Origin: a virus
Lineage: Duplodnaviria; Heunggongvirae; Uroviricota; Caudoviricetes
Reading direction: 5' to 3' (one strand)
DNA length: 36,836 nt
IMG/VR virus record: IMGVR_UViG_2585428015_000012
Every line of letters begins with the position of its first letter. Position 1 is the first letter of the stretch. Positions 7,550-14,204 of this stretch are shown here, piece by piece. Under the pieces are notes generated by a model that searched no databases, had not been told where the DNA came from, and worked only from the letters and a program-made list of their open reading frames with translations. The position numbers were made by a program, and so were the translations under genes.

Positions 7550-8430
7550 ACACTCCTCGTCAGTATTCTGGCGGCCATTGCACTTAATCCCGGAGACATG
7601 CGGTTGAATGCTGTGCCGACGGCGTTAAGCTGCCCGGAAACGGTATCCAGAGCACCTGCAATATTTCTTTTGTCCACACCACTCAGCGCAGACTGTGCCT
7701 GCTGTACATACGTGGCTGCTTCGCTGGCTGTTCTGGCCAGACTGATGGCATCGGGCATGGATTCAGAGAGTGCGTTAAACGCCGGAACACTTTTCCCCAG
7801 AGCCCCGGAGATATTACCCAGTCCGCTCATCAGCCCCGGCACACGGGTCAGTGCGACAACGGGGTTATCCTTCATTTTCTGTGTCACCCGAACGGCGCTG
7901 ATAGTGGTCTGGAGTACAGACTGCGCCTGTTTCGCATAGTTGACGCCGTTGCGGATGAACTGCGCCACCCCTGAAGGTGAAGGTATGGCACCGGAGACCG
8001 CCCCGACACCCGGGAGCTTCGTGCGTATTGCCGGTGGTTGCAGAGGATTTTTCGGGTCACCGGTGTATTCCCGGAGAGACACGGTGGCACTGACAGCCAG
8101 CACGTTGCCGGTACTGTCAGTCTGCTCGCTGGTTGCAGTCACATCGGTGATCACGAACCAGCCGCGATAGTCACCGTTGCCGAAGACCAGCGCCAGTGCC
8201 TGATGGGCTTTCATGGCTGTTCGCAGTCTCGCCAGCTCCACATCGGGTACACAATAATGCTGATGGAAAACCAGAGTTATCTGGATTTCGTCCAGCCTGT
8301 CGCCGACGAACTGCAGACCAGGCTTACCCCCGATGCGGGCATGCTCCGCATAATCGACGCCGAACGTGGCCTCGAAGCCGTCCCAGTAGGTAATCAGCTC
8401 AAACTCAATATCACCCAGTACGGCAAACAT
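7546..8430 (-). CDS. Tail protein with GpU-like N-terminal region (Mu N / DNA circulation protein analogue)
   Basis: 294 aa ORF directly downstream of the tape measure gene (ATGA overlap); N-terminus MFAVLGDIEFEL... resembles the P2 GpU family. Confidence 0.55.
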   Translation of the reverse strand: MFAVLGDIEFELITYWDGFEATFGVDYAEHARIGGKPGLQFVGDRLDEIQITLVFHQHYCVPDVELARLRTAMKAHQALALVFGNGDYRGWFVITDVTATSEQTDSTGNVLAVSATVSLREYTGDPKNPLQPPAIRTKLPGVGAVSGAIPSPSGVAQFIRNGVNYAKQAQSVLQTTISAVRVTQKMKDNPVVALTRVPGLMSGLGNISGALGKSVPAFNALSESMPDAISLARTASEAATYVQQAQSALSGVDKRNIAGALDTVSGQLNAVGTAFNRMSPGLSAMAARILTRSV

Positions 8431-11381
8431 CAGCGGTACTCCTTACGTTGTTTCTGAGCCAGCAGACGCTCCAGCATTTTTTCCAGCTCATGCAGACTCA
8501 TATTCAGGGCACCAGTCAGTCCTGCAGGCGCTGTGGTTTCCCTGCCATTGAGGAAAAACTGAGGATTAAAGCTGACCTGGATACCACCAGACGTTCCACC
8601 GCCGGTTGCAGCTGCACCACGGCCTGAATATCCGGCAGCCAGGATTTCAGGCGAGGGGATACGGGGAACATCCGGTGTCATCTCATTTGCCAGACGTTGC
8701 CCTGGTAAAATCGATGCCCGGGTGGAGAGCGGAATAGCGGGCATGGAAGACAAACTATTGATTACGGCTCCGATCGCATTTTTAGCAGACGACATAAACC
8801 CATTGATATCGGGCAACGGCATACTGAAGCGAACACCTGAAGTGTTATCCCGTATTTCTGGCCCCTGAATGCTCACGGGCATTCTGGGGAGCAGTTCACT
8901 GGCCATTCGCTGCCCGGCCAGAGCTGCAAGCGGAGTGGTCCGCTGCAGGCCAATGGCGGCCCCCTGCGCGATATTGTCACCAAAGCCCATAAACACGCGG
9001 CTCGGCGAATGAATGCCCAGCTTTTCGCTGAACCAGCCACTGATGCTGTCGCCCATTCCGGTTACACTGGATTTGAGCGACTCCCATTTGTTTTTGATAC
9101 CGTTAATCAGACCATCGACAAGATGGCCACCGAAGTCGGTAAACTTTGCCGGCAGATCAACACCAAGATATTTCAGCGCAGCTGCAAAGGCTTTATAGAG
9201 CAGACCTGCCGGCGACCAGTTAATCAGCAGCTTACCAGTTCCCGCGATACCGCCGTTAAAGGCTTCCTGAATGTCAGCCCAGCATTGTTTAAACCAGCTA
9301 CTGATGCTGTCACCCATTCCGGTTACACTGGATTTGAGCGACCCCCATTTGTTTTTGATACCGTTAATCAAACCGTCGATAAGATGGCCACCGAAGTCGG
9401 TGAACTTTGCCGGCAGAGTAACGCCGAAATATTTCAGCGCAGCCGCAAAGGCTTTATAGAGCAGGCCTGCCGGCGACCAGTTAATCAGCAGCTTACCAGT
9501 TCCCGCGATACCGCCGTTAAAGGCTTCCTGAATGTCAGCCCAGCGCTGTTTAAACCAGCCACTGACTGCCCCCCAGTTGCGGTAGATAAGGTAAGCTGCT
9601 GCCGCGACAGCGGTGATAACGAGACCGATGGGATTCATCATCAGCGCTCGCCCAATCCAGAGAACGGCACGTGCAGCGCTCATAAAACCGCGAACGAGGC
9701 TGCCCGCCAGAACTTTGCTGAGTTTCAGTCCTCCGCTGGTCAGTCGGCTGAATCCAGTGACAAGCCAGCGTAATTTGCCACCTTCTCCGAGTGCGGTAGT
9801 CAGTCGATGCCAGTTGGTCCGGAGTAAAACAGCAGTTTTCCAGACGTTCACAAAGGGGGAAATAAGGAGATTCAGCCCCAGTTTGAGACCAACAGTCGCT
9901 ATCTTAATCGCAAGGAGCGCACTGATGAGCTTAAAAGCCCCACTGACAAATTGCGGGTGAGTCGCCACCCAGTGTTTTGTCCCCTGAATGAGTGGGAGCA
10001 AGTCCTGAGTCAGAGAAATAAAAGATGGAGCTAATTGATCGCCCAGCGTAATTGCCAGATCGCGACTGCTGACCATAAGTGTTTTAGTGGCTTCAAGGGG
10101 AGATTTCAGCCGCTGATCATAAGCACTGGCAAGCAAATCGTTATCCGCAGCCCTGAGAGCACCGGCACGGATCTCTCGATATCTGTCCATGTTGGCCAGC
10201 ATCGGGCGGATAAATGCCATGACCTGCATATCCGCGAACATATCGCCCAGACCAAAGTTTTTCGCCAGAGCCTGAAGTGCCTCATCTCTTGCCGTATCAT
10301 TCTTTATTTTCATGGCTGATTTGAAGCCGGCCAGCGCTTCGGGGCTTTTGGCATTGAGGTAACGTTCTATAACACTCAACATCCCTTCAATCGGAGAGAT
10401 CCCCGCAGCTTTATAACTCGCAATAGATCCCTGCAAATCAATACCCAGATCAGCAAACTGTTTCTGAGTATCGCGGGCAAAAATTTTGGTAAGAAAGTTT
10501 TTAAAATTATTGGCTGCTTCGTCGGTGGAACCTGCACCGATTTTTGCTATCTGGAGACTGGCCCCGATTTCAGCAACAGCCTCTTTTCCACTGGCAATAC
10601 CCGCCATCATTGGGGCCAGGGACTGCATCCACTTGACCTGATCCGGGATTTCAAATGACCCCTGGTCACCGGCATAAGCCATAATATTCTGAACGGCACC
10701 AAAATCTCTGGCCGCGCCTTTCAGGGAGTTTTGCCAGACTGCGGCCACTTTTGCCCAGTCCTGAGCAGACGTGCGTGTTGCCGTTGCCGCGCGGGCAATA
10801 TCCGGCATCAGAAAACCGATATCTGACACATTATCAATATTGTCGCTGATGAGTGAACCCATCGCCTCCTGCAGCTCATCCTGATACTGATTGTATTTAA
10901 GCGCCCAGCCTTTTATCTGTCCGGCAAGTGCATCCCGCGTTTTATTGTCATATTTTGCGGTGATCGACATATCAATCATTTTGTCCTGAAAAGACATGGA
11001 CTGCTGAACGGCAGGGGAAACCGTATGATAAACAGTCTGTGCCATGCCATACGCTTCAATCCCCTGACCATACAGCGCCATGCGGTTAGCTTTCAGCGCA
11101 TCACTGGTAGCGGATGCCGCTGACAGACGGCGCTGCTGGCGCTCAATTTGCTCCATGGTGCGGCTTACCCGCAGCAGCTCGCTGTTGAGATGCTGCATCC
11201 GGGAAGAACCCAGTTGACCATAACGTTCTGTTGCACGGGTTAAAGCGTTCTGACGTTCCTGCAGGCGGCGTGAGGTATCGCTCAGGGAATCAAGCGCACG
11301 GCGGGTACCGCTCATTGCAGAACGGAATGTGCTGCCAATCATCCCGCCGATAACAACGCCGACTGAAAACTGTCCCGACAT
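8430..11381 (-). CDS. Tail tape measure protein
   Basis: 983 aa ORF, largest tail gene, coiled-coil-rich N-terminus, hydrophobic central part, internal tandem duplication; GGAGG ribosome-binding site upstream. Confidence 0.85.
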   Translation of the reverse strand: MSGQFSVGVVIGGMIGSTFRSAMSGTRRALDSLSDTSRRLQERQNALTRATERYGQLGSSRMQHLNSELLRVSRTMEQIERQQRRLSAASATSDALKANRMALYGQGIEAYGMAQTVYHTVSPAVQQSMSFQDKMIDMSITAKYDNKTRDALAGQIKGWALKYNQYQDELQEAMGSLISDNIDNVSDIGFLMPDIARAATATRTSAQDWAKVAAVWQNSLKGAARDFGAVQNIMAYAGDQGSFEIPDQVKWMQSLAPMMAGIASGKEAVAEIGASLQIAKIGAGSTDEAANNFKNFLTKIFARDTQKQFADLGIDLQGSIASYKAAGISPIEGMLSVIERYLNAKSPEALAGFKSAMKIKNDTARDEALQALAKNFGLGDMFADMQVMAFIRPMLANMDRYREIRAGALRAADNDLLASAYDQRLKSPLEATKTLMVSSRDLAITLGDQLAPSFISLTQDLLPLIQGTKHWVATHPQFVSGAFKLISALLAIKIATVGLKLGLNLLISPFVNVWKTAVLLRTNWHRLTTALGEGGKLRWLVTGFSRLTSGGLKLSKVLAGSLVRGFMSAARAVLWIGRALMMNPIGLVITAVAAAAYLIYRNWGAVSGWFKQRWADIQEAFNGGIAGTGKLLINWSPAGLLYKAFAAALKYFGVTLPAKFTDFGGHLIDGLINGIKNKWGSLKSSVTGMGDSISSWFKQCWADIQEAFNGGIAGTGKLLINWSPAGLLYKAFAAALKYLGVDLPAKFTDFGGHLVDGLINGIKNKWESLKSSVTGMGDSISGWFSEKLGIHSPSRVFMGFGDNIAQGAAIGLQRTTPLAALAGQRMASELLPRMPVSIQGPEIRDNTSGVRFSMPLPDINGFMSSAKNAIGAVINSLSSMPAIPLSTRASILPGQRLANEMTPDVPRIPSPEILAAGYSGRGAAATGGGTSGGIQVSFNPQFFLNGRETTAPAGLTGALNMSLHELEKMLERLLAQKQRKEYR
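9030..9550. repeat. Tandem ~258 bp duplication inside the tape measure gene (two ~86 aa copies)
   Basis: Near-identical sequence beginning ccagc.actgatgctgtc.cccattccggttacactggatttgagcga recurs ~258 bp apart; the protein shows the corresponding duplicated 86 aa block. Confidence 0.8.
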
Positions 11382-11456
11382 AGTGGTTAACCTCCGGGGA
11401 AGGTGAAAAGACGTGAGGGGATAACGCAGAACAGCCGCTACTGGCGGCTGTCTGTA

Positions 11457-11714
11457 CTATGATTTGTCGCCGTACTCGCTTTTGATTTGCTCTTCAGCCT
11501 GCTCCAGCCACATCTCCAGATCGTCAGTATCGAGGGCATCAATCTCCCCCGGCTGAAACCGGAACCATCTCGCCAGCAGCCCCTGCGCCTGCGTCAGCGC
11601 CCTGGTTGCTCTCACCCATCCCCGTGATGAGCTGAAATCGTTTCTGTAACTGCAGGTAATCAGCCAGATCCATATTGTCGAGATCCTCCGGGAGAAGACC
11701 AGTACTGCGGGCAA
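11457..11714 (-). CDS. Overlapping downstream-frame ORF, probable frameshift extension of the tail chaperone (gpGT-like)
   Basis: 85 aa ORF overlapping the last ~175 nt of the chaperone ORF in the +1 frame and ending just before the tape measure gene. Confidence 0.45.
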   Translation of the reverse strand: MPAVLVFSRRISTIWIWLITCSYRNDFSSSRGWVRATRALTQAQGLLARWFRFQPGEIDALDTDDLEMWLEQAEEQIKSEYGDKS

Positions 11715-11874
11715 TCAGCGGTTCGTCCCAGTCTGCCGGGTTTTTGCTGATTTTGCGCACCTGCTTCAGGTCTTTTACCGTCAGGCGTTTCAGTTCAACC
11801 AGCTCAATTCTGGTGCCTGCAGCAGTGGTGAAGGGATAAGACAATTTAAAAGTATCGGATGGGGTCTGTGACAT
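11539..11874 (-). CDS. Tail assembly chaperone (gpG-like, upstream ORF of a frameshift pair)
   Basis: 111 aa acidic ORF between the tube and tape measure genes; AGGAG ribosome-binding site 8 nt upstream of ATG. Confidence 0.6.
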   Translation of the reverse strand: MSQTPSDTFKLSYPFTTAAGTRIELVELKRLTVKDLKQVRKISKNPADWDEPLIARSTGLLPEDLDNMDLADYLQLQKRFQLITGMGESNQGADAGAGAAGEMVPVSAGGD

Positions 11875-11971
11875 GATTGTGCTCCTGTGTAAGTTCAGGG
11901 CAGTATGTCGGGAGAAGCGCGTGACGGATATTAAAGGAGATTAAGAAGAAGGGGCCGGAGCCCCTGTGATG

Positions 11972-12253
11972 TCAGCAAGTGCGAAACCCCTTGCAGTTAC
12001 GCAGGAAAGCGATGAGAAGCGTCTTTCCCTCAGATTTGCCGATGCCGGAGAACCAGTGGTCGGGAGGCTCCCATGCTTCAATCAAATCCGCCAGTTTGCG
12101 GGCCTTTGAACGTGTGCAGTCAATCGGGTCATTGGTTTTACGGGTATTAAAAAGGGTTTCCACCCCCGGAATATCAAGGAGGGTAAACCACGTACCATTT
12201 GACATGCCCAGTGCCGCACATCGTCCTCCTTTATCCGTCAGTTCAACACTCAC
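11972..12253 (-). CDS. Hypothetical small protein between tail tube and chaperone (GTG start)
   Basis: 93 aa ORF on the late-gene strand starting 2 nt after the tube stop with a GGGGG stretch upstream; no recognisable family. Confidence 0.35.
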   Translation of the reverse strand: MSVELTDKGGRCAALGMSNGTWFTLLDIPGVETLFNTRKTNDPIDCTRSKARKLADLIEAWEPPDHWFSGIGKSEGKTLLIAFLRNCKGFRTC

Positions 12254-12255
12254 CG

Positions 12256-12777
12256 TCAGCCCCCGATATTGATACGGTAGTCAGTCAGTTGATCAACACC
12301 GCCGACCCGGAAGATGTTGGCCAGATAGTCCAGTTGCAGCAGCTCTTCACCATCCAGTACCTGTCTGATATACGTGCAGGTGAAGCTACTGGAGAACTCG
12401 GCGTTCTCGTGCTGTTTGAACGTCCCCAGCGGGTTCTTCTTGAACATAATCGTCAGGAAGGTGACCAGCGGGATTTCGTCAATCAGCCCCTGCGAGCTGT
12501 AGCGCTGGACGCTGGAACGACACTGCAGTGCCAGCGACCTGTACGGGTTCGCGGCAGACAGCATCGCATCGCGGTAAAAGCTGTTCCATTTGATTTCGCC
12601 TTCCAGTTTGTCAAAACCAGCCGGGAGTTCCACCTTACCCACCATCCCCAGCGCCTTGTGTTCCTGCATAATCATGGAGACATCGGGGAGTTTAACTTCC
12701 TCAGCCCGTCCCAGCAGGTTAGTACCATCCAGATAGATGTTGGCATTCGTGATGCGGTTTATCTCAATCTTTGACAT
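12256..12777 (-). CDS. Tail tube protein
   Basis: 173 aa ORF immediately downstream of the sheath gene. Confidence 0.7.
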   Translation of the reverse strand: MSKIEINRITNANIYLDGTNLLGRAEEVKLPDVSMIMQEHKALGMVGKVELPAGFDKLEGEIKWNSFYRDAMLSAANPYRSLALQCRSSVQRYSSQGLIDEIPLVTFLTIMFKKNPLGTFKQHENAEFSSSFTCTYIRQVLDGEELLQLDYLANIFRVGGVDQLTDYRINIGG

Positions 12778-14204
12778 CAGTTGCCCCCTTTCAGGGTTAA
12801 CAGGTATTCCGAGGTGATCTCAGTCTCAAACGTCAGTCGCTCCAGCGGCGGTGGTGGCGTATATTTGTAGCTCAGCAACAGGTGCCCGGCGGCCAGCTCC
12901 GTCTCCGGATTGCGGGCCGGATCAAACCAGCAACGGAAGCCCAGTACCGCACCATCACCAGTCATTTTGCGACCGTAGGCGTTGACCGACTCCGTCAGTG
13001 CATCAATCAGCGCCTGAGTAATCGGCATGTCGATGTACTGCTGGCTGAAATAACGAATGGACTCGTTGATCACATCACCGGTGCGGCGAACGTTCTCAAA
13101 GTTACGCATATGGGTGACCGTTGGCCATGCTGCCGTCCGGTTACCCCACAGACGAAGGCCGCTGCCGTAACTGCTGAATACCGTGGTGATCCCCTGTTCG
13201 TTAAGCAGGTTCACCTCACTCTGCGGGTCATCAATCATCGCGGACAGCTGGCGCTCCACGCCGGTGATCCCCAGAATCTCCTGATTGGAGGATGACCACC
13301 AGTAGCCCTTGTCCAGATCGACTCTGGCACGCAGACCTGCTGCACGCTGGCTGAGCGGCTCCAGACGCTCTGTGTTTGTCACCGGGTCATATACCTTCAC
13401 ATGCGGATAGCACAGACGGACGCGGTCGGAGCTGGTATTGAAGTTGATGGTGCCTTCCGGGCCACGACCTGCCAGAGCCTGTGCAAAGGTGGTACCGACA
13501 GGCGCATCAATGTAGGTTACCGCGCCCAGCTTCTCTGCCATGGCGATAAGCTCAACTGCGACACTCTTCTGGGTGCAGAACACCGGCGCAATCAGAATTT
13601 TGGCGAAATAGCCGTACAGGTTGAAGCTGTCGTTAAGCAGCTTCATGCCGGTTCGGTTTCCGGCGCTGTTCACCCCGCCGATGATGTCCGCCGCAGTCAC
13701 CTTCGACGGGTCCGCGTACTCATAGCTCACCTTCACGCTGCCACCGGCCTCAATAGCCTTGCCCAGGTTCGTGAGCACACCCGCCTGCGCATCAACACGG
13801 TAGTCCGTGTTCGCCGTGTGGGTGGTGCTGCCTTCACTGTTTTTCACCACCACATTAGCGACAACCGGATGCGCCAGTCTGGCCTGCCCTGTCGATTTGT
13901 CAAAGGTAACCACCTCATCCTCGATCGCCGTTTTATGTTTCGCCGGGTCGAGGACGTTAATGACCAGAACGGTGCCTGCACCATGGTCATAAATCGCATC
14001 CAGCGCCTGCGGAATGGTAAAGCCGGTGAACTGGCTGCCAAATGCCGCTGCGTCTTTCTCAGACAGGCACTGTACCAGCGTATTGACATCCCCCATCGGG
14101 GCGGTACCAATCAGGCCAATAACGGCAGATTTCACCGTTTTAACCGGGCGGGCACCGTTTTCCACCTCAATGGTTTCGGGACCATGCAGATAGTTAGCTG
14201 CCAT
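12777..14204 (-). CDS. Contractile tail sheath protein
   Basis: 475 aa ORF; size and position upstream of the tube gene are typical of Mu L-type sheath proteins. Confidence 0.85.
   Translation of the reverse strand: MAANYLHGPETIEVENGARPVKTVKSAVIGLIGTAPMGDVNTLVQCLSEKDAAAFGSQFTGFTIPQALDAIYDHGAGTVLVINVLDPAKHKTAIEDEVVTFDKSTGQARLAHPVVANVVVKNSEGSTTHTANTDYRVDAQAGVLTNLGKAIEAGGSVKVSYEYADPSKVTAADIIGGVNSAGNRTGMKLLNDSFNLYGYFAKILIAPVFCTQKSVAVELIAMAEKLGAVTYIDAPVGTTFAQALAGRGPEGTINFNTSSDRVRLCYPHVKVYDPVTNTERLEPLSQRAAGLRARVDLDKGYWWSSSNQEILGITGVERQLSAMIDDPQSEVNLLNEQGITTVFSSYGSGLRLWGNRTAAWPTVTHMRNFENVRRTGDVINESIRYFSQQYIDMPITQALIDALTESVNAYGRKMTGDGAVLGFRCWFDPARNPETELAAGHLLLSYKYTPPPPLERLTFETEITSEYLLTLKGGN

Follow-up and report, generated by a model that had tools for sequence, protein, structure and literature searches.

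In phage lambda, the tail-assembly chaperones gpG and gpGT arise by a -1 frameshift on G_GGA_AAG. Their gene lies between the major tail and tape-measure genes, and the two products share a common N-terminus and are made in a fixed ratio (PMC5009743). Frameshifts in the -1, -2 and +1 directions are all on record for tail chaperone genes (PMC5009743; PMC10885494). Phage P2 produces gpE and gpE+E' by -1 tandem slippage on a T-run (T_TTT_TTG) located seven codons before the stop, and phage Mu produces gp41 and gp41-42 by a verified -2 slip on CGG_GGG_CGA close to the stop. The subject of the present analysis is the corresponding locus in a 36,836-nucleotide stretch of viral DNA (IMG/VR record IMGVR_UViG_2585428015_000012), which in its full length is referred to below as the window. 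The window is a BcepMu-like prophage of Escherichia coli. At this locus it is 100% identical to Escherichia phage PhiKM (Bcepmuvirus), and 641 of 5426 complete E. coli genomes carry the prophage. Comparison with homologues suggests, with a probability that we put at about three in four, that a gpE / gpE+E' tail-assembly chaperone pair is made in it by a +1 slip at UUU_C. The device as such is known from phages; the predicted fused product is unannotated in public records, and the proposed slip site is unusual.

The chaperone gene and its +1 extension

The relevant tail genes are all encoded on the minus strand. The chaperone gene (11874..11539, taken as frame 0) codes for a gpE-like protein of 111 amino acids, which matches PF10109 (Phage_TAC_7, entitled 'Phage tail assembly chaperone proteins, E, or 41 or 14') over residues 8-81 with an expectation value (E) of 5.5e-21 and a score of 74.8 bits (cutoff 25). 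It is overlapped by an open reading frame (ORF) of 85 amino acids (11714..11457), which was called mechanically. The first-pass annotation of the window had described this pair and its position between the tube and tape measure genes. The coordinates hold on the minus strand and the Pfam matches agree: the chaperone gene is preceded by the gene for a 173-amino-acid tail tube protein of the P2 FII type (12777..12256; PF04985, E = 2.9e-53) and followed by that for the 983-amino-acid tape measure protein (11381..8430; PF10145, E = 1.3e-20), which is labelled as tape measure in PhiKM. The position of the gene is that of its counterparts in lambda and in P2 (FII tube, E, T); no sequence similarity to the lambda pair was found, although no search aimed at it was made. 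The downstream ORF had also been assigned correctly to the +1 (= -2) frame, since 11874-11714 = 160 and 160 mod 3 = 1, and a three-frame reading agrees. The start codon at 11714, given as ATG in the first-pass annotation, is TTG.

About 210 homologous loci were compared. They were collected in three scans, namely, of viral contigs with the chaperone as the query (79 loci), of bacterial genomes with an alignment as the query (49 loci), and of more distant sequences with an alignment led by BcepMu (79 further loci). BcepMu, KP12, P2, Mu, a Salmonella prophage and one phage each of Ralstonia, Pseudomonas and Pasteurella were added. The frame of the extension (the E' frame, after P2), assessed on the C-terminal 40 residues of the 85-amino-acid ORF, is +1 in 205 of the 210 loci. 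The five exceptions, all enterobacterial, comprise four loci in which a one-nucleotide deletion has merged the frames and one truncated contig. The comparison of homologues supports the earlier proposal that the locus probably encodes a tail-chaperone pair with a +1/-2 extension, rather than with the usual -1 arrangement.

Among the 79 loci of the first scan, in which the identity of the chaperone goes down to 68%, the +1 segment shows 92-100% protein identity in 75. Upstream of Arg79, column entropy is 0.67, 0.46 and 1.21 bits at frame-0 positions 1, 2 and 3, respectively, with the peak at position 3. For codons +30 to +56 the values are 1.00, 0.48 and 0.37 bits, and the peak falls on frame-0 position 1, which is position 3 of the +1 frame. 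The third positions of the +1 frame are the most variable from about codon +7 onward, and residues invariant in this frame are written with three to six synonymous codons (e.g. CGG, AGA, AGG and CGC for Arg). Together, the third-position variability and the use of synonymous codons indicate that the +1 frame is translated and is under purifying selection.

Read in the +1 frame after the proposed slip, the extension would comprise 58 codons and a TAG stop (11633..11457). The conceptual fusion of the window matches PF10109 over residues 8-82 and, weakly, PF06528 (Phage_P2_GpE) over residues 100-132; the latter score of 18.4 bits (E = 0.0015) is under the cutoff of 23 bits. PF06528 is matched in 14 of 16 homologue fusions, with a best E of 7e-6. 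The gpE+E' protein of P2 contains the same two domains (PF10109 at 7-85 and PF06528 at 104-139), and its hhalign alignment to the fusion covers 109 columns (E = 2.5e-5, probability 75%). Because of the PF06528 matches in the homologues and the alignment to P2 gpE+E', the extension is interpreted as the counterpart of P2 E', that is, as a gpE'-like domain. In PHROGs the extension matches phrog_8286 (E = 8e-34), a separate family of unknown function. An NCBIfam search with the fusion gave no match.

Some NCBI records of relatives contain stand-alone fragments of 32-52 amino acids named 'GpE family phage tail protein'. In none of the database records examined is the extension joined to the chaperone. 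RefSeq and the records of PhiKM and KP12 annotate the chaperone only, and the predicted frameshift product is missing from all three.

The functional domain of the chaperone ends near residue 82, while residues 81-111 form a low-complexity tail that overlaps the +1 coding sequence. This frame-0 tail varies in length and sequence among the homologues, with stops at +12, +16, +26, +30/31 and +33 codons from Arg79. Two relatives at 98% identity (L022 and L023) carry a CAG to TAG change at codon 90, which leaves a chaperone of 89 amino acids (91 in P2 gpE) and the +1 frame intact; the shortened proteins fit the view that the frame-0 tail past the domain is dispensable. One-base deletions fuse both frames, often into 138 amino acids, in L078, L083, L096 and L121 and in the proteins P0004, P0006, P0007, P0009, P0023 and P0060. 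The base lost belongs to the G5 run or to a G3 run, or lies upstream of Phe80, and the deletions may be homopolymer sequencing errors or belong to decaying prophages; a fused single ORF would lose the ratio of two products. The collection also includes an 8-kilobase contig of an assembly labelled Arthrobacter sp. GMC3 (L086, NZ_PJIO01000028.1) that is 99% identical to the E. coli prophage region, and its occurrence in an actinobacterial assembly is probably due to contamination.

Probable position of the frameshift site

The first-pass annotation had named independent translation of the second ORF as one of the observations that would speak against a frameshift. A separate small gene starting at the TTG at 11714, or at an internal GTG or ATG, would agree with the stand-alone 'GpE family phage tail protein' ORFs annotated in relatives, with the existence of the extension as a family of its own in PHROGs, and with the presence in the window of both the TTG and a GTG after the conserved Trp codon. 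It is, however, highly improbable. In 29 of 88 unique homologues, no ATG, GTG or TTG is found in the +1 frame from the nearest upstream stop to this invariant Trp, and in the remaining ones the positions of start codons differ and are not conserved. The +1 frame is closed three to nine codons upstream of the shift site proposed below in many relatives; in the Ralstonia phage, the Pseudomonas phage and L204 it is stopped three codons before it. The TTG of the window is not accompanied by a Shine-Dalgarno sequence, and the first 27 codons of the 85-amino-acid ORF show no conservation at the protein level. Conservation of the +1 frame is poor ahead of the site, and translation of these codons in that frame probably never takes place. 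The homologous domain of P2, moreover, is made only as a fusion. Since no start codon is general and stops are found close upstream, ribosomes translating the chaperone gene need to change frame.

The stops of the two frames confine this change to about nine codons around Phe80. The left limit comes from L135, L136 and L204, in which a +1-frame stop precedes the position of Phe80 by three codons, and in several enterobacterial relatives the +1 frame opens five or nine codons before Arg79. The right limit is set by a frame-0 stop six to seven codons after Phe80 in L161 and L162, with further frame-0 stops at +12 in L022 and L023 and at +16 in L129-L134. Within this interval, the only feature common to all loci is an in-frame TTT followed by C. 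The proposed shift site, CGA_UUU_C, consists of the codons of Arg79 and Phe80 and the first base of codon 81 (11640..11634), and it was identified from its conservation and from the bracketing stops.

At the DNA level, CGA_TTT_C occurs in 130 of 131 enterobacterial loci, the window included, and the remaining locus has CGG_TTT_C. Across 91 unique sequences, it is the only run of at least 7 nucleotides at a conservation of at least 97% within 385 nucleotides. CGA_TTT_C is also found in Ralstonia phage YO107_2, while the Pseudomonas phage has GTG_TTT_C and BcepMu has TCC_TTT_C. All 75 of the more distant loci with a recognisable extension contain exactly one in-frame TTT_C in the overlap, and it is located at the aligned Phe. 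The conserved X_TTT_C is thus situated inside the overlap, and it is not a canonical -1 heptamer. In a profile alignment, Phe80 is aligned to the GFF of P2, where P2 slips -1 on T_TTT_TTG.

The codon for Phe80 is TTT in 93 of 93 unique enterobacterial sequences, while other conserved Phe codons are divided between TTT and TTC at 57:35 and 71:17. Two other conserved Arg positions of frame 0 are encoded by CGC, CGT or CGG only, never by CGA. Residue 81 varies between Q, H, R and L, and the first base of its codon is always C. With TTT fixed, CGA near-fixed and the C of codon 81 fixed, the conservation exceeds what the protein needs.

Three further sequences were considered and rejected. For a +1 slip on CA_GGG_GCT, which is read as Q-G-L in the +1 frame, the Gly codon varies between GGG, GGC, GGT and GGA, and these changes are synonymous in the +1 frame. 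For AAA_CGA, with CGA as a slow codon in the ribosomal aminoacyl (A) site, the preceding codon varies between AAA, ACC, CAA, GGC, GAG, CGT and AAG. The third, ACN_GGG_NTG_G, is not conserved outside close relatives.

The possible shift sites named in the first-pass annotation were the last codons of the chaperone frame, GCC GGG GGA GAT TGA (11553..11539), and the stretch CCGGTTTCA (11562..11554). Both sequences are present in the window, but neither is conserved as a shift site. A shift that takes place as the chaperone ORF ends, with CCGGTTTCA or the G-run GCC_GGG_GGA as the site (+1 or Mu-like -2 for the latter), is suggested by the run of five G adjoining the stop in the window, by the verified -2 site of Mu, which is also a G5 (CGG_GGG_CGA), and by some assemblies (L078, L083 and L096) that have one G fewer and hence in-frame fusions of 138 amino acids. 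Nevertheless, it must be considered extremely unlikely, because frame 0 in most homologues stops at a TAG before the G-run is reached; this TAG, at codon +26 from Arg79, takes the place of the CCG in CCGGTTTCA and precedes the stop used in the window by seven codons. CCT/CCA and AGT variants break up the G-run itself and, when read in the +1 frame, amount to synonymous or conservative changes. Within CCGGTTTCA, Arg is written as CGG, AGA, AGG or CGC. As the variation inside the two stretches (CCG/CCT/CCA and CGG/AGA/AGG/CGC) is synonymous in the +1 frame, both are already read in that frame. Nothing in the locus is better conserved than the +1 residues further upstream (QAQGLLARWFRFQP). They correspond to the E' domain of P2, and QAQGLLARWFRFQP must therefore be translated. 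The candidate site at CGA_UUU_C (11640..11634) would lie about 90 nucleotides (31 codons) upstream of the position chosen in the first-pass annotation. A nearer alternative for this phage is a +1 shift a few codons downstream of Phe80, on ACG_GGG_A (11625..11619), which immediately precedes the codon of the conserved Trp. GGG_N is known to be prone to +1 slippage, the frame-0-like substitution pattern runs to about codon +6, and the first invariant +1 residue is the Trp at +7. This placement is nonetheless unlikely, given that GGG is replaced by GGA, GGC, GGT or AGC in relatives from Photorhabdus, Lonsdalea, Brenneria and Salmonella and is absent in BcepMu and the Pseudomonas phage, while the relatives devoid of GGG all keep the +1 arrangement and UUU_C. 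The same frame would also be reached by a -2 shift; sequence alone cannot formally tell +1 from -2, and a -2 shift has been verified for Mu gp41, which belongs to the same Pfam family. Here such a shift is very improbable, since no transfer RNA (tRNA) re-pairs two bases back at the site, where UUU would move to GAU and CAG to UUC, and there is no conserved homopolymer run of five within the permitted interval. Transcriptional slippage was rejected as well, because the conserved site contains only a T3 run, which is too short for this process.

Several observations weigh against a slip at UUU_C or against its exact placement there. The five codons past the site still show a frame-0 substitution pattern, and the sequence statistics alone place the shift only between about codon -2 and +7. 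CGA is not kept in the wider clade, where TCC, GCC, AGC, TGT and GTG are found in its place, and the zero-frame A-site codon of the window, CAG, is common in E. coli. No Shine-Dalgarno-like element is visible or conserved upstream of the site, and no conserved RNA structure was found downstream of it, the RNAalifold consensus being -3 kcal/mol with no compensatory pairs. Finally, the homologues are related phages, so the evidence from conservation is not independent.

Proposed mechanism and products

We infer a ribosomal event, and one in the +1 rather than the -2 direction. Most ribosomes would read 11874..11539 in frame and produce the 111-amino-acid chaperone. In a minority, the peptidyl-tRNA-Phe on UUU (Phe80, 11637..11635) in the peptidyl (P) site would slip one base forward onto UUC. 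The anticodon GAA forms a G:U pair with UUU and a G:C pair with UUC, so the move is favourable. After the slip, decoding would proceed in the +1 frame, beginning with AGC (11633) and ending at the TAG (11459..11457). The resulting fusion of 138 amino acids would consist of residues 1-80 (11874..11635) and 58 further residues (11633..11460), with a layout of chaperone domain, variable linker and gpE'-like domain. The same protein would be obtained if Phe-tRNA bound UUC out of frame while tRNA-Arg was on CGA. If the products work like lambda gpG/gpGT and P2 gpE/gpE+E', their common N-terminal part may coat the tape measure protein while E' recruits the tube protein, and the frequency of slippage would set the ratio of the two products.

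The CGA codon is decoded by weak I:A wobble pairing. It is rare, and its near-invariance in enterobacteria suggests an effect exerted from the ribosomal exit (E) site, in which case it may tune the slip in these bacteria. The E-site codon varies in the wider clade, and any role of CGA is thus clade-specific at best. In the A site, the enterobacterial loci have CAG, CAA, CAT or CGC, and the other loci have CGC, CGG or CGT; none of these codons is rare in its host (for the Arg codon usage of E. coli, see PMC3498833). A fold of the single sequence downstream of the site has a z of -1.9. Given the lack of a conserved downstream structure and of a Shine-Dalgarno-like element, the efficiency of slippage is probably low, as in lambda (a ratio of 30:1) and Mu (~2%).

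Comparison with known systems and neighbouring features

The P2 pair is similar to the one proposed here in gene position, in the probable combination of PF10109 and PF06528 in the fusion, and in the proposed location of the slip at a homologous Phe codon. The sizes of the two products are 91 and 142 amino acids in P2 versus 111 and 138 here. In contrast to the -1 slippage of P2 on its T-run, the present locus has a +1 extension and an X_UUU_C site with no T-run, placed 31 codons before the frame-0 stop. Mu gp41/gp41-42 shares the PF10109 chaperone family and an extension in the same relative frame (+1/-2). However, in most relatives of the window the G5 run that corresponds to the Mu slip site is interrupted or comes only after frame 0 has stopped, and the conserved site offers no -2 re-pairing. 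If the slip takes place as proposed, one chaperone family would reach the same two-product outcome by three different slips, -1 in P2, -2 in Mu and +1 here.

Outside phages, the closest parallel is influenza PA-X, in which +1 slippage at UUU_C in the P site (UCC_UUU_CGU) is supported by mass spectrometry, and in the same study a class of UUU_C sites was predicted in which the codons in the E and A sites are restricted (PMC3498833). The two cases have in common the UUU_C sequence, the movement of P-site tRNA-Phe to the better-pairing UUC, which is proposed for the present locus, and perhaps, as far as enterobacteria are concerned, an E-site codon conserved beyond coding need. The site of BcepMu reads TCC_TTT_CGC, as compared with UCC_UUU_CGU in PA-X. 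PA-X differs in its eukaryotic host, in its rare A-site CGU, where the phages usually have the common CAG or CGC, and in the unrelated protein. The prfB gene of E. coli, encoding release factor 2, uses bacterial +1 P-site slippage on CUU_UGA, for which the E-site codon affects efficiency (PMC3498833). Unlike the present site, prfB depends on a stop codon positioned at the A site and on an upstream Shine-Dalgarno-like element, and neither is present here.

It is somewhat more probable than not that a minimal UUU_C +1 site is used by a whole clade of P2 gpE-type chaperones, namely, those of BcepMu-like phages and prophages from Enterobacterales, Burkholderia, Pseudomonas and Ralstonia, and that this site works without a stop codon, rare codon, Shine-Dalgarno element or RNA structure. 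To our knowledge, well-supported bacterial +1 sites are few. If true, the clade would be the bacterial counterpart of the UUU_C class predicted by Firth et al. from PA-X. No description of a +1 UUU_C site in BcepMu-like phages was found in a literature search, the original 2004 papers, including that of Xu et al., being outside its reach. A site located 31 codons before the frame-0 stop and devoid of the usual stimulators is of a kind that prediction tools would overlook.

It would also follow that the direction of the frameshift has flipped in evolution at a homologous Phe codon, being -1 in P2 and +1 in this clade. Two loci bear on such a change of direction. In L137 (Pasteurella phage AFS-2018a), E' is found in the -1 frame, as in P2. 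L162 contains GAT_TTT_TTT_CGG, whose T6 run could in principle slip either way, and its E' is in the +1 frame.

The BcepMu record labels gp42 and gp43 as a frameshift pair, while by homology the pair is formed by gp41 and gp42, and the annotated pair is probably spurious. The record describes gp43 (L003 2978-3364) as 'alternative gene42 C-terminus produced by ribosomal slippage'. An opposite-strand ORF for a strongly hydrophobic peptide (...MNIQSIAEGITYTVIAIAGVVLAVWLF...) overlaps it, and gp43 may be a mis-annotation. A similar reverse-strand sequence seems to follow E' in relatives from Brenneria, Pectobacterium and Xenorhabdus.

The tail tube gene is preceded by the tail sheath gene (14204..12777; PF04984/PF17482), and genes of Mu-type head proteins (Gp36 and Gp37) are found further along the plus strand, that is, upstream in the minus-strand operon. 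A conserved 93-amino-acid ORF (12253..11972) is inserted between the genes for tube and chaperone. Its match to phrog_1239, a family of unknown function, has E = 4.7e-48, and DUF7739 is matched weakly; no such ORF occurs at this place in P2 or BcepMu, and the PhiKM and KP12 records call it hypothetical. A terminator-like hairpin, AGGGGCTCCGGCCCCT followed by TCTTCTTAAT, is located between this ORF and the chaperone gene (11950-11965, minus strand). Two terminator-like sites were found in the region, against 1.2 expected by chance.

The gap of 75 nucleotides between the stop of E' and the start of the tape measure gene contains a GC-rich hairpin, CAGCCGC-CAGTA-GCGGCTG (11432-11450, minus strand), followed by a T-rich tract. 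A hairpin is kept in relatives whose spacers have diverged, with different loops and shifted stems, e.g. AGCAGCCG-GTAA-CGGCTGCT TTTCTT. It may act as a partial terminator or processing site between the chaperone and tape-measure genes.

The tape measure gene itself carries a 261-base-pair tandem duplication (window positions 9031-9565, minus strand) with 2.0 copies at 93% identity, by which about 87 amino acids are repeated. The PhiKM record has a sequencing gap at this duplication, and in RefSeq the gene of strain SK1144 is flagged as incomplete. Assembly is probably disturbed by the repeat, which could alter the length of the tail.

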